Positions 999-5,215 of a DNA stretch of 5,451 bases are shown here, piece after piece. Below the pieces are notes generated by a model. The model was not told the DNA's origin and searched no databases. It saw nothing but the letters and a program-made list of their open reading frames with translations. The stretch lies in the IMG/VR virus record IMGVR_UViG_2728369181_000007. One strand, given 5' to 3'. This DNA comes from a virus (Duplodnaviria > Heunggongvirae > Uroviricota > Caudoviricetes). The position numbers and the translations under genes are program-made. Numbering within the stretch: the first letter of the stretch is position 1; each line of letters starts with the position of its first letter.

Positions 999-1571
999 TC
1001 ATAATTCTGTGCTGGTGGCAGGAATTAATTTCTGCCAGATAGCGGAAACATATTTTGCCTGATGACGGGCATCGGCCAGGGCGTTGTGCCGTTCGCCATC
1101 GAAAGGCATGTCCATTTTGGGGTCGAATCCGATGGAACGCCCAAGCGTAACGATCGTGCGTACATCGTGGTCATTCCAGTATGCCCACGGGCAAATTTGT
1201 CCTGCTCGCTCATAAGCTCCACGTAAAATTACGTTGTCGAAGGTGGCCCCGTTACCCCAGACTTTTAAATATTTCGTATTGGCTGCATGCCGGTTAATGA
1301 AATGATTTAGTTCTGAGAGAGCATCGCTGATCGACAAAGTATCATCAATACAGATTGCAGCTCGTGCTTCAGGGCTTTGTTTCAACCACCACAGGATGGT
1401 ATCGCCGTCAGGTGTAGCTCCTTGCCCCATAGCACTTTCCAGGCTAACAACCGTATAGAATTCTTGTCCGATGTCTCCGGTTTCTGGAGTGAAGAACACC
1501 GCGCCAATGGAAACGATCGGTGCATCCTTATTTTTCCCCATCGTCTCAAGGTCGATCATTAAGTTGTTCAT
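999..1571 (-). CDS. DEDDh-type 3'-5' exonuclease (DnaQ/RNase T-like), 190 aa
   Basis: Exo I-like motif MIDLETMG (D-x-E), Exo II-like WGNGATFD, Exo III-like HNALADARHQAKY (H-x4-D). Start is ATG at 1571-1569, which overlaps the upstream gene's TGA stop (minus-strand reading gTGAtg); GTG at 1574 is an alternative. Stop TGA at 1001-999. Confidence 0.75.
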   Translation of the reverse strand: MNNLMIDLETMGKNKDAPIVSIGAVFFTPETGDIGQEFYTVVSLESAMGQGATPDGDTILWWLKQSPEARAAICIDDTLSISDALSELNHFINRHAANTKYLKVWGNGATFDNVILRGAYERAGQICPWAYWNDHDVRTIVTLGRSIGFDPKMDMPFDGERHNALADARHQAKYVSAIWQKLIPATSTEL

Positions 1572-2137
1572 CACTTCACCTCCTGCGGCGGTTCCGGTAG
1601 CGGCATCCAGTGAGTTGCTTGCTCAATACCATTACCCGGCTTAATCGTTGCATCTCCGCGCCGAAAGGTGCTTCCGGTATAGCGTGCGGAGCATATTAGC
1701 GGTTCAACCAGATCACTATCGAAATTCACCGAAATAAGTACGTTCTGATTCTTTTTCGGCATTAGCTCACTACAGCTTATCCAACCATCCGGAGTTACCG
1801 GAGAGTTGCCATTTACATCGAAGTTTGGCTCTGCGTCCTGAACCAGGAGGATGTAACCATTCTTGGCTGTATCAAGTTCTAACGCCTCGGTGACGGTGCC
1901 GAAATAGCGATTACCTAAATCAGCATCACAAGTGCTTACATCAATGGAAACTTCCATGCCTTCGATTAATTCTGGCAAGTTGTAAGTTTGGCTTACAGGC
2001 TCTGCTTCCAGCGATACCAGTGCAATTCGTGCCAGTTCTTCCGCTTCTTCTGCTGGCAGTACAACGTTGCTGCCAGGTCCGTATGTTTCGCGCCACTGCT
2101 GGATTGTCAGCAGGCGTTCTTTGGTAATAGTGGTCAT
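1571..2137 (-). CDS. DUF551 domain protein, 188 aa, prophage accessory
   Basis: The C-terminal sequence ATHWMPLPEPPQ matches what I recall as the hallmark of DUF551 proteins of enterobacterial prophages. ATG at 2137-2135 is preceded by AAGGTG about 9 nt upstream; stop TGA at 1573-1571. Confidence 0.7.
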   Translation of the reverse strand: MTTITKERLLTIQQWRETYGPGSNVVLPAEEAEELARIALVSLEAEPVSQTYNLPELIEGMEVSIDVSTCDADLGNRYFGTVTEALELDTAKNGYILLVQDAEPNFDVNGNSPVTPDGWISCSELMPKKNQNVLISVNFDSDLVEPLICSARYTGSTFRRGDATIKPGNGIEQATHWMPLPEPPQEVK

Positions 2138-2332: not shown

Positions 2333-2860
2333 TCACTCTCCTTTGATGCGAATGCCAGCGGCGCGTGGCACATTAACTTCCACGATGCGCACAGTTGGTT
2401 TGTACATCTCAATCGCAGTCAGCCAGTCAGCTCCTGTCATGCGCTTTTCCGCATCGCCATTAGTCCACTGAACCGGTACACCAATAGCCTTCATCGCGAT
2501 TTCTATTTCCCCGGCAATGGCGCTTTTTCCGCAACCAGTAAAACCAGATACAACGACAAGAACTTCGCCTTTGGCTGGTTTTATTTCCCGTGCTTCCAGT
2601 TCTGCAATACGCTTTTTTGCTGCTTCCAGTTCATCCAGTAATTCCAGCACGGTAGCCGGATTAGCCTTGGCAACAAAATCCCGGACTGGCTTACAATCAA
2701 TCTCCGCAATGGGTTGATACGATGTGTAGCCATGCTGTCTTGTATAACTACCGTGACGAATAACGAAAAAATCACCGTTTATTTTTTTAGCCTGCCACTT
2801 ATCTTCACCGGCTTTCACTGCCGCCTCACGCAGTGCCTGATAGTCAATTTTGTTTGTCAT
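2333..2860 (-). CDS. Ead/Ea22-like prophage protein with coiled-coil segment and a C-terminal Walker A-like motif, 175 aa
   Basis: The N-terminal region (DYQALREAAVKAGEDKW...) and a coiled-coil stretch (LELLDELEAAKKRIAELEARE) resemble Ea22-like proteins. GFTGCGKS fits the Walker A pattern GxxxxGK[ST]. ATG at 2860-2858 overlaps the upstream TGA as ATGA; stop TGA at 2335-2333. Confidence 0.65.
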   Translation of the reverse strand: MTNKIDYQALREAAVKAGEDKWQAKKINGDFFVIRHGSYTRQHGYTSYQPIAEIDCKPVRDFVAKANPATVLELLDELEAAKKRIAELEAREIKPAKGEVLVVVSGFTGCGKSAIAGEIEIAMKAIGVPVQWTNGDAEKRMTGADWLTAIEMYKPTVRIVEVNVPRAAGIRIKGE

Positions 2861-3735
2861 GTAACTACCTCTTCGAATTTCAACTCCAGTTGATCACCCC
2901 AGATTTCACATGACTCTGAACACGAGCCGGTATCGAATCGCCCGGCCTGCACCATCGCCTGATACAAATTCCAGTAGTCGCTGTCGGCATACATTCTGGC
3001 AATCCCTTCAAGACTCAGATGACCACGGTACATAACGTCTTTACCTGTTCTGCGATGACCGTCCCTGACGTGTTGGCCTGTAACCAGTTCATTAAAAACC
3101 CGCATCAGGCCAGGTTCGTCCTTACATGCAAGCCCCAGCTTTTGCGTTGACTTTTTGATGCAGAAAACACAGTTCCCGAGGTGCTCAGGGATAAGTAAAT
3201 CGAACGGCTGTTTACGCCACCACCGGATAACATCCGACTTATCAAAATCTGACAGTTCGGCGAGATACCGGACGCCCGGTTTCGGTTTCAGCCTGCGGGG
3301 TTCGTCTGCACGAATACCCAGCCATGTGATGTAATTCCCTCGCCCAAAATGGTCATCGCAATATTTCGTGAAAGGGGTGAGTTTTAGCCTGTCAGTACAG
3401 AATGCGCCGCCGATGTATGGCGTACCGTACTTTTTAACCATGTCCATAAACGGTTTAAGCACCGGCATTCGCGTCTGAATATCCTTTGGTTCCCATTCCG
3501 TATAACCATTTGGCTGCCCAAGCTCTGGATTTATATCGACCTGCAACACAGTTAGCGGTATGCCCCAGAACTTCACAACCTCCCGAATAAAGCGGTATGT
3601 CAGCGGATGTTCGCAACCGGTATCCATAAAGATGTAGCAGACGTTATTGCCAGCCTTTCTTTGTTCTTCCATCAGGTGAACAAGATATGCAGATGTTCTC
3701 CCGCCAGAAAAACTAACTACATGAGTTATGCACAT
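2857..3735 (-). CDS. PP-loop ATPase, phosphoadenosine phosphosulfate (PAPS) reductase family protein, 292 aa
   Basis: N-terminal PP-loop SFSGGRTS (res 8-15) followed by FMDTG (res 36-40), typical of the PAPS reductase/ATP-sulfurylase-like fold. Two Cys pairs, CVFC (res 189-192) and CSESC (res 272-276). ATG at 3735-3733 overlaps the yfdR 3' end by 10 nt; stop TGA at 2859-2857. Confidence 0.8.
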   Translation of the reverse strand: MCITHVVSFSGGRTSAYLVHLMEEQRKAGNNVCYIFMDTGCEHPLTYRFIREVVKFWGIPLTVLQVDINPELGQPNGYTEWEPKDIQTRMPVLKPFMDMVKKYGTPYIGGAFCTDRLKLTPFTKYCDDHFGRGNYITWLGIRADEPRRLKPKPGVRYLAELSDFDKSDVIRWWRKQPFDLLIPEHLGNCVFCIKKSTQKLGLACKDEPGLMRVFNELVTGQHVRDGHRRTGKDVMYRGHLSLEGIARMYADSDYWNLYQAMVQAGRFDTGSCSESCEIWGDQLELKFEEVVT

Positions 3736-4262
3736 TTGCGTAATTCCGATAACTCGTTGAAGCGTTCCATAAACATCCCGTAGGCATGGCCCGGTGCCAG
3801 TGGAATCACTTTGAACATCTCTGTTGCCGGGATACCTTCCAATACAGGCCAGAAAGAGCCATCATCAAGTCCGAGATCGCGGCGTTCGGTTGCCAGCATG
3901 ATGAGATCGGCATATTTCACTGGCGTGCTCATAACAGGAGGTAACCCGTATTTCTCACGGATTACGGCGTCTATTTTTTCTTCCATCCGTTTATAGTCAG
4001 GAAGAAGTCGTTTCAGTGGTGCGGGGATGTCCTGGCAATACGCTTCTGTTGCATCATGCATTAACGCTTCAAAAGCAAATTCCTGCGGCACCAGCTGGCT
4101 GCAAAGCACCGCATGCTGGGCGACACTGTAGAAGTGTGAAAGATGTCCTGCAAAGCGACAGATATTTGAAAGGGAAACCGCGATATCGTTAATCACGATG
4201 TCGTCTTTATTTATCTTGTCATAATAAAAATGCTTCCCGGAAAAAGTTTTAATAAATGACAT
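3726..4262 (-). CDS. yfdR: HD-domain phosphohydrolase (5'-deoxynucleotidase-like), YfdR homolog, 178 aa
   Basis: The H...HD motif (AQHAV ... LMHDATEAY) marks an HD domain. I chose the internal ATG at 4262-4260 (MSFIKTFSGK...), preceded by GGAG (revcomp of 4269-4272) 6 nt upstream, giving 178 aa, which matches my recollection of K-12 YfdR. The track's 199-aa form starting at 4325 has no comparable RBS. Stop TAA at 3728-3726. Confidence 0.85.
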   Translation of the reverse strand: MSFIKTFSGKHFYYDKINKDDIVINDIAVSLSNICRFAGHLSHFYSVAQHAVLCSQLVPQEFAFEALMHDATEAYCQDIPAPLKRLLPDYKRMEEKIDAVIREKYGLPPVMSTPVKYADLIMLATERRDLGLDDGSFWPVLEGIPATEMFKVIPLAPGHAYGMFMERFNELSELRKCA

Positions 4263-4356
4263 TTCGTTCTCCACTTTATATGCGCTGCACCGCGCTGAAT
4301 TCGGGTAAAAGGAATCCCGCACCATCCGGCGATTATTGAGTTAATTACGTTTCCAT

Positions 4357-4378
4357 AAATGCCCCCGCAGGGGCATTT
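4357..4378 (-). terminator. perfect 9-bp inverted-repeat hairpin in the yfdQ-yfdR intergenic region; possible weak terminator/attenuator or RNA processing site
   Basis: aaatgcccc (4357-4365), loop cgca, ggggcattt (4370-4378). It lies 12 nt downstream of the yfdQ stop on the minus strand. The U-tract is short (UUUAU), so if it is a terminator it is weak. The 128-nt gap is the only sizeable intergenic space in the operon. Confidence 0.3.
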
Positions 4379-4390
4379 GCAGTAATGAAA

Positions 4391-5215
4391 TCAGGCGGTG
4401 AAAGTACCAATAAAGGTTTCTACTTTGCTGTCTTTGAATTTCTCAACAAGCAGATCACGAAATTCGTTAGCCATTTCTTCCTGCACTGCTTCCAGCTGAA
4501 TAATGCGCAGAACCAGTACAGGACGATCGCCAGTGATAATGCTGAGGCGTAATTTAAATGGACGTTCTTTCAGACCTTCAAACGGAACGCATTTAAATTC
4601 AAATGCCACTGGCATAATGTCTTTGGTCTTCGCTTCGACAGACTCCATCAGGGAGCGTTTGCCGCTGAAGTCATTATCTTCAAAATCAGCGGTCTGGTTC
4701 GCTTCAATTGTGATTTTACGGATCGCCGCAGCCGCTTTGGTTGCCTGAATGGCGTCACCATTAGCATCAAAGCCCACAAGGTAGTCGGCCCAGTCTTCAA
4801 TCCATTCTGCCAGTGACTTCTGGGAGTTACGCTCGCCATTAACAGACAACAGAGCAGAGAACGGTGCTGTCTTTTTCAGTTTGAGAGTGGCGGTGTTATC
4901 TGCGTGACCTGGTTCATCAATAGTACCCAGGTTAAGCACACTGACGGCTCGCATATTATCGGCATCGATAAAGCAGCGGGTGCCTTCATCTGCAAGATCT
5001 TTAGAATAACGGGTAAAGTCATCGATGCTGGCAGTGGAAAGTGCACCACGGAAACGGAAACGATTTAAATTAAATTTTTCCAGATCATGAATGCGGAAAT
5101 TCTCAGGCAATGCCACAGCATCGGCACCAATCTTACTGATAATTTCATTAACACCCTGAGCAGAAATAAGGGCATGGATTTGATTAATTGCGGTTGAGTC
5201 TAAGTTCTGAGACAT
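4391..5215 (-). CDS. yfdQ: DUF2303-family prophage protein, YfdQ homolog, 274 aa
   Basis: ORF of 274 aa beginning [12 protein letters not shown], matching the length and, as far as I recall, the sequence of K-12 YfdQ, and lying immediately upstream of yfdR as in KpLE1. ATG at 5215-5213 with GAGG about 8 nt upstream; stop TGA at 4393-4391. Confidence 0.85.

Follow-up and report, generated by a model that had tools for sequence, protein, structure and literature searches.

Among the described systems of DNA phosphorothioation, DndC receives its sulfur from DndA or IscS (PMC8569181), and a study cited in PMC12914056 reports that TdpC alone suffices in Tdp, a single-gene phosphorothioate writer acting via an adenylated DNA intermediate. 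On the phage side, moving p0018 and p0019 of Vibrio phage 44E38.1 into a sensitive phage gave growth on a Dnd-carrying host (Piel et al., bioRxiv 10.1101/2021.05.05.442762), a cassette cited as precedent in PMC13551039. Here we describe a relative of p0018 encoded in a 5,451-nucleotide stretch of Caudoviricetes DNA (IMG/VR record IMGVR_UViG_2728369181_000007; the whole stretch is hereafter the window). Its product has the fold of phosphoadenosine phosphosulfate (PAPS) reductases and, judged from sequence, the gene is almost certainly the orthologue of phage lambda NinC (Orf290). NinC has stood as an unexplained lambda reading frame since the genome was sequenced. It is counted among the ‘poorly understood’ lambda proteins (PMC3224144) and belongs to the nin region, which is wholly deletable and for which knock-down by CRISPR interference is neutral when Q is provided in trans (PMC10695390).

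Virome surveys routinely count the family, under the names ‘PAPS reductase’ and ‘cysH’, as an auxiliary gene of sulfur metabolism. This ‘cysH auxiliary metabolic gene’ label is probably wrong and, we argue, misleading, because members lie in replication modules, some are fused to DNA methylases, the closest defence profile is that of SspD, one homologue is associated with Dnd escape and another was crystallised together with IscS. More likely, the family is a party to the conflict over phosphorothioation of DNA. Our analysis establishes the identity, fold, conservation and genomic context of the window gene; IscS binding and the anti-Dnd phenotype come from homologues, and from these we infer the substrate, chemistry and role of this prophage copy.

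A NinC-like gene in a prophage early operon

The gene and its landmarks are, in window coordinates:
2857..3735, minus strand: NinC-family gene for a PAPS-reductase-fold protein of 292 residues (open reading frame (ORF) call, 79% identity to lambda NinC, PF01507, PHROG 424/33262, dN/dS)
3691..3714, minus strand: glycine-rich PP-loop-like motif SFSGGRTS, residues 8-15 (read from the sequence)
3397..3399, minus strand: Cys113 in the motif C-T-x-x-L-K (conserved in 106/106 representatives; also in PptA)
3160..3171, minus strand: CVFC, residues 189-192, inside G-N-C-x-x-C-x-K-K (read from the sequence; kept in the PptA subfamily)
2908..2922, minus strand: CSESC, residues 272-276, in the C-terminal tail (read from the sequence; PptA equivalent CSLVC)
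3726..3735, minus strand: 10-nucleotide overlap of the stop of a yfdR-like HD gene with the start of the NinC-like gene (ORF calls and sequence)
2857..2860, minus strand: ATGA stop/start overlap of the NinC-like gene with a downstream Ea22-like gene (ORF calls and sequence)

The protein aligns with lambda NinC (Orf290, Nin290; NP_040635) over 285 residues without a gap, at 79% identity and 92% similarity. The pointer to this assignment was the annotation of a homologue in Salmonella phage Oslo. PHROG 424 and 33262 match residues 4-291 (E values 1e-91 to 3e-92), and the Pfam model PF01507 (PAPS_reduct) scores 37.6 bits against a gathering cut-off of 22.5, with residues 5-72 only in the alignment; PF01507 is also matched by 90 of 106 family representatives. 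A preliminary description of this DNA had placed the protein in the PAPS-reductase/PP-loop superfamily, and these matches, with the CysH and APS-reductase structure matches described below, uphold that placement. All three motifs it had listed (SFSGGRTS, CVFC and CSESC) and both gene overlaps are present, but the NinC identity was missed. The gene is thus already known: as a NinC orthologue it bears the same annotation in hundreds of genomes and is covered by Pfam and PHROGs.

It is also widespread. Of 5426 complete E. coli genomes, 542 contain the gene by megablast, with 73 of the places on plasmids, and a tblastn search recovers it from 588 phage records, of which 62 are Stx2a phages and 341 Vibrio phages. 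Relatives number 5034 among 90%-identity clusters; an exhaustive search of 50%-identity representatives returned 1649 at E <= 1e-3 and 112 at E <= 1e-30.

Conserved residues and fold

Conservation was read from an alignment of 106 full-length representatives, 28-53% identical to the window protein. Five cysteines stand out: C113 and C189 (each 106/106), C192 (105/106), C272 (102/106) and C276 (104/106). C41 and C126 are not conserved. The glycine-rich loop is similarly constrained (S10 104/106, G11 99/106, G12 103/106, T14 95/106, S15 104/106), as are E42, K118, G140, R142, D144, E145 and R148 and, further along the chain, G187, N188, K195, K199 and R237, all near-invariant. Both cysteine pairs, which the preliminary description had singled out and whose loss among homologues it would have taken as a sign of error, are therefore kept across divergent members; the fifth invariant cysteine, C113, was absent from its account. 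Pairwise ratios of non-synonymous to synonymous substitution (dN/dS) are 0.07-0.17 against relatives at 80-98% identity, indicating purifying selection on the gene. Many representatives (P0125, P0133, P0136, P0142 and others, 330-360 residues) are 40-70 residues longer and match in two stretches with a break near residue 150; their sequences suggest an element inserted after the G-I-R-A-D-E-P-R-R loop.

An AlphaFold2 model built with 81 homologs has a mean predicted local distance difference test score (pLDDT) of 88.3. The only region with pLDDT < 50 is the tail, residues 268-292, which holds CSESC (the C terminus reads G-S-C-S-E-S-C-E) and is on this ground predicted to be flexible. Foldseek matched the model best to CysH and adenylyl-sulfate (APS) reductase, at template modelling (TM) scores of only 0.4-0.5, and a search of a viral fold library returned family members only. 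Aligned with hhalign, the family profile reaches 92.7% probability against E. coli CysH over the N-terminal 108 columns, pairing K118 with the lysine of the CysH segment ‘DINKVEP’ and G140-R142 with ‘GLRRE’. Residues 96-218, used as a single-sequence query against PDB sequences, found nothing.

In APS reductases, CCxxRK and GCxxC motifs ligate a [4Fe-4S] cluster and the catalytic cysteine sits on a mobile C-terminal tail. C113 lies five residues N-terminal of K118, and we take C113 and C189xxC192 to occupy the cluster-ligand places and the CxxxC tail that of the catalytic cysteine, an assignment made from motifs rather than coordinates. Where an Fe-S APS reductase has four ligands (CC ... CxxC), the window protein offers three candidates, C113 and C189xxC192, at positions given by the CysH alignment and those motifs. 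Its distance from true CysH is clear in other respects: the NCBIfam CysH model PRK02090 has a cut-off of 154 bits and gives the protein 20.3, and the CysH catalytic motif ECGLH is absent from the C terminus. The profile of QueC, of the 7-deazaguanine pathway, gave no match.

Genomic context

At 99% identity, the window corresponds to part of a prophage integrated at dusA in E. coli MSB1_9I, where the gene bears the name ‘phosphoadenosine phosphosulfate reductase family protein’. The minus-strand operon there runs yfdP, yfdQ, yfdR, the NinC-like gene (directly after yfdR), ea22-like, a small ORF, DUF551, a 3'-5' exonuclease and a PrtN-like excisionase.

For a wider view we assembled 213 viral loci with a family member. 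Their sources were a scan guided by a profile, scans with single proteins and a degenerate DNA pattern. The scans with single divergent proteins yielded few loci; the degenerate pattern, for G-N-C-x-x-C-x-K-K-x-x-x-K, gave 120 diverse ones. The 213 loci fall into 73 lineages at 70% identity, and neighbours were scanned with Pfam and PHROG in one locus per lineage, giving 118 immediate neighbours. These are replication, recombination and methylase genes: DNA polymerase A, helicases, primases, NinG, NinB, HNH nucleases, single-stranded-DNA-binding proteins and three DNA methylases. No neighbour family is common to more than 6 of the 73 lineages. Sulfate-assimilation (cys) genes are absent from the 118 immediate neighbours, which, together with the low CysH score, bears out the earlier suggestion of a role other than sulfur assimilation.

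The preliminary description had also grouped the HD hydrolase, the PP-loop enzyme and the exonuclease into one possible modification module. This grouping did not survive the comparison. Within the enterobacterial lineage, 36 of 96 loci have the YfdR-like HD gene as upstream neighbour, and none of the other 72 lineages has it there; the exonuclease is found no more than seven genes away in 21 loci, which belong to three lineages; the Ea22-like gene is an equally inconstant neighbour across related loci; and lambda NinC sits between ninB and ninD with neither HD gene nor exonuclease nearby. Given such inconstant neighbours, the overlapping stop and start codons probably reflect tight operon packing.

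An IscS-bound relative and an anti-Dnd cassette

The best PDB sequence match of the family profile is chain C of entry 21fy, named ‘PptA’ (E 2.3e-7). PptA has 250 residues, and its gene follows that for RNA polymerase in the T7-like Vibrio phage vB_VhaP_VH-5; the protein falls in PHROG 424 and aligns with the NinC family in hhalign at 96.8% probability. A PDB search with the native E. coli IscS sequence found it in exactly two entries, 1p3w and 21fy. As 21fy holds both PptA and native IscS, a phage member of the family has been solved with the host cysteine desulfurase. Two other candidates for the PptA partner in 21fy, the VH-5 RNA polymerase and thioredoxin, both proved wrong. Our literature search found no paper on PptA, and the entry suggests that other groups appear to be at work on the NinC family. 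By analogy with PptA, we lean towards the NinC family working with IscS sulfur, and regard this as fairly probable.

Two further members of the PptA subfamily were seen in unusual settings. That of the Mu-like Pseudomonas phage LESphi4 (L237:1228-2004), annotated ‘FAD synthetase-related enzyme NinC’, lies directly upstream of the terminase large subunit gene; that of Pseudoalteromonas phage PHS3 (L238:724-1149) adjoins a ‘putative DNA base-flipping protein’.

The anti-Dnd link comes from the Vibrio cassette. In Vibrio phage 44E38.2, p0018 is a PAPS-Dam fusion whose N-terminal 280 residues are 55% identical to the window protein (E 5e-108). The co-transferred p0019 has no homologue among the window genes, and the upstream yfdR-like protein is unrelated to it. 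Methylase fusions recur at low frequency in the alignment: Dam (PF05869) is joined to 5 of the 106 representatives, N-terminally in two and C-terminally in three, and a D12-class adenine methylase to one. That the fusions come in both orders and with two methylase families is an argument for a substrate in common, namely DNA. Adjacency to Dam is not a general family trait: just 5 of the 73 lineages have Dam fused or no more than two genes away. JSS1_004, another anti-Dnd protein that we considered, is an unrelated kinase/shutoff protein. For a described mechanism of the NinC family, our literature search returned the Vibrio anti-Dnd genetics only.

Among defence profiles, the closest is that of SspD. 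PADLOC aligned residues 5-148 of the window protein with SspD (E 2.5e-15) and gave weaker matches to BrxP (E 1.3e-4) and to DndC (E 9e-4), the latter in the N-terminal domain only. Across the representatives SspD is matched by 106/106 (best E 2.8e-20), BrxP by 46/106 and DndC by about 14/106. The DndC-like resemblance raised in the preliminary description is thus real at the level of a profile match, although SspD is the nearer relative. The comparison with CysH, DndC and QueC that it had proposed as a check supports the superfamily and places the protein in none of these three families. sspB and sspC are absent from the window and do not recur in related loci, and no dnd genes, and hence no dndBCDE operon, lie nearby.

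A candidate sulfur transferase for phage DNA

Our best reading, put forward tentatively and by analogy with homologues, is that the protein is a sulfur transferase which is fed by IscS and acts on nucleic acid, most probably phage DNA, to leave a phosphorothioate-type mark against restriction of the Dnd type. During lytic growth it would dock on the host cysteine desulfurase and take up persulfide sulfur via the cysteines of its mobile CxxxC tail, while C113, C189 and C192 would hold a cluster or relay the sulfur. A nucleotide bound at the glycine-rich loop would activate an oxygen of the substrate by adenylation, and the activated oxygen would then be swapped for sulfur. The substrate would most probably be the phage's own DNA, and the product a phosphorothioate-type mark such as that of the homologous SspD and DndC; this mark may shield the phage genome from phosphorothioate-based restriction. 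That the product is a DNA phosphorothioate we consider less likely than not. It is unlikely, on our assessment, that NinC-family proteins at large are stand-alone, IscS-fuelled writers of a sulfur mark on phage DNA that dispense with the helper ATPases of Dnd, Ssp and BREX, whether the mark be a backbone phosphorothioate or an undescribed thio-modification.

Several observations weigh against this sulfur-transferase reading. Lambda DNA commonly serves as an unmodified control, and we know of no report of its sulfur modification. The SspD match covers profile positions 2-121 of 277, so that the likeness to SspD and DndC is one of the N-terminal half and not of the full length. The loop S-G-G-R-T-S departs from the canonical SGGxDS, with Thr in place of Asp in 95/106 representatives and Ser in 9/106; with this replacement, and with S-C-G-A-x-S as the loop of the PptA subfamily, ATP use is not assured. 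PptA is only ~22% identical to the window protein, and its IscS binding may for that reason not carry over to NinC. The described phosphorothioate systems other than Tdp pair a PAPS-reductase protein with a P-loop NTPase (PMC12914056), and no such partner of the DndD/SspC kind is conserved beside the NinC family in the 73 lineages. The Vibrio transfer comprised two genes, one with a Dam domain, and reports their joint effect rather than the share of the PAPS domain (bioRxiv 10.1101/2021.05.05.442762). Finally, NinC is dispensable for plaque formation on K-12 (PMC10695390).

An IscS complex, the family's only structural datum, would also suit a protein that binds IscS to block or divert host sulfur, so that phosphorothioation, Fe-S assembly or tRNA thiolation in the host is starved, and that itself catalyses little or nothing; the degenerate phosphate loop of PptA and the lack of a conserved phage-encoded partner are in keeping with such a role. 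We nevertheless judge it distinctly unlikely, since in the NinC branch the phosphate loop, the cysteine triad and several charged residues are near-invariant, as for an enzyme, and the DNA methyltransferase fusions point to DNA. Halting host phosphorothioation alone would also be expected to leave unmodified phage DNA open to DndFGH. IscS sulfur and a [4Fe-4S] cluster on three cysteines would likewise serve a tRNA thiolase of the TtcA/TtuA/NcsA type, which could tune translation in infected cells or counter tRNA-directed defences. This is quite improbable for a family that profiles group with PAPS reductase and SspD rather than TtcA/TtuA, whose fused domains are DNA methyltransferases only, with no RNA-binding domain among them, whose neighbours are DNA-metabolism genes and whose sole reported phenotype concerns a DNA-based defence.

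The database name would make the gene a true APS/PAPS reductase, an auxiliary metabolic gene boosting host sulfate assimilation. The nearest solved structures are indeed APS reductase and CysH, and the cysteine triad with its tail cysteines resembles the APS-reductase layout (from the CysH alignment and general knowledge). With homology restricted to the N-terminal part, however, a CysH score far below threshold, no ECGLH, no cys genes nearby in 73 lineages and fusions to DNA methylases, we regard this as very improbable. A single nucleotide or nucleic-acid modification pathway formed by the HD hydrolase, the PP-loop enzyme and the exonuclease would account for their tight packing in one operon, where stop and start codons overlap; its membership is so variable between loci (HD gene 36/96 in one lineage and 0/72 elsewhere, exonuclease in three lineages), and lambda NinC so plainly lives without either gene, that we hold it to be extremely improbable.

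If the family does belong to the conflict over phosphorothioation, experiments on lambda would settle a long-open annotation and could bring to light a compact sulfur-transfer enzyme. Were the family members stand-alone writers, lambda and, through their prophages, about one-tenth of complete E. coli genomes would carry an overlooked enzyme of DNA modification and counter-defence. The evidence assembled here makes a decades-old unexplained lambda gene directly testable by experiment.

Other features of the window

Upstream of the NinC-like gene, the yfdQ-like (DUF2303) and yfdR-like (HD 5'-deoxynucleotidase) genes (3726-5215, minus strand) match yfdQ-yfdR of other E. coli prophages. The yfdR-like product has 199 residues in the ORF call and 178 in RefSeq, which starts at an internal ATG 21 codons later. 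Downstream, residues 89-175 of the Ea22-like protein (2333-2860, minus strand) carry a Walker-A-like GFTGCGKS and a weak match to the adenylyl-sulfate kinase family (NF003013, E 0.0088). We considered this APS-kinase-like domain as a partner and rejected it: it occurs in 6 of the 213 loci only, and the nearest genome has a different, 218-residue Ea22-like protein. It looks like a swapped module.

Positions 999-1574 (minus strand) encode an Rv2179c-like DEDDh 3'-5' exonuclease (PF16473, E 3.7e-75). In Vibrio phages, mutations in an RNaseT/DnaQ-type exonuclease gave escape from retron Ec48 (bioRxiv 10.1101/2021.05.05.442762).

Two small plus-strand ORFs (1-420 and 460-633) at the prophage end fall in PHROG 19071, of unknown function, and have no Pfam match; in the matching genome (L002:11432-12633) they lie directly downstream of a Panacea-domain protein. 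Facing the early operon convergently, they may make up a toxin-antitoxin or defence cargo cassette. Between these ORFs and the end of the minus-strand operon, a strong GC-rich hairpin (652-677, GAAAACCCGCCTTCAGGCGGGTTTTT), flanked on each side by runs of A and T, has the look of a bidirectional terminator. A search for RNA families and tRNA genes found none in the window.

Comparison with known systems

The window protein shares a homologous N-terminal nucleotide-binding domain with SspD, DndC and BrxP. Its gene is phage-borne rather than part of a defence island and lacks the sspBC, dndBDE and brxC partners. With an N-terminal-only match and no partner genes, the protein is a homologue of SspD, DndC and BrxP but not a member of their systems. 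From the assimilatory APS/PAPS reductases (CysH; PDB 2goy, 6vpu, 1sur) it keeps the glycine-rich loop, and differs in its modest TM-scores, the missed CysH threshold, the lack of ECGLH and another genomic context.

Its nearer kin are phage proteins. PptA has C-T-x-x-L-K, N-C-x-x-C and a C-terminal CxxxC (CSLVC) in common with it, but its loop reads S-C-G-A-P-S against S-G-G-R-T-S and the 68-95 insertion is missing. In p0018 of 44E38.1 and 44E38.2 the likeness extends to the whole PAPS domain with all five conserved cysteines; the Dam domain is absent from the window protein, and the anti-Dnd link belongs to the Vibrio cassette. Closest of all is lambda NinC, with the same length, the same motifs and the same PAPS-reductase annotation name. 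The two differ in setting: the lambda gene lies within the nin region on the rightward operon, whereas the window copy occupies an early-left operon, between yfdR-like and Ea22-like genes.

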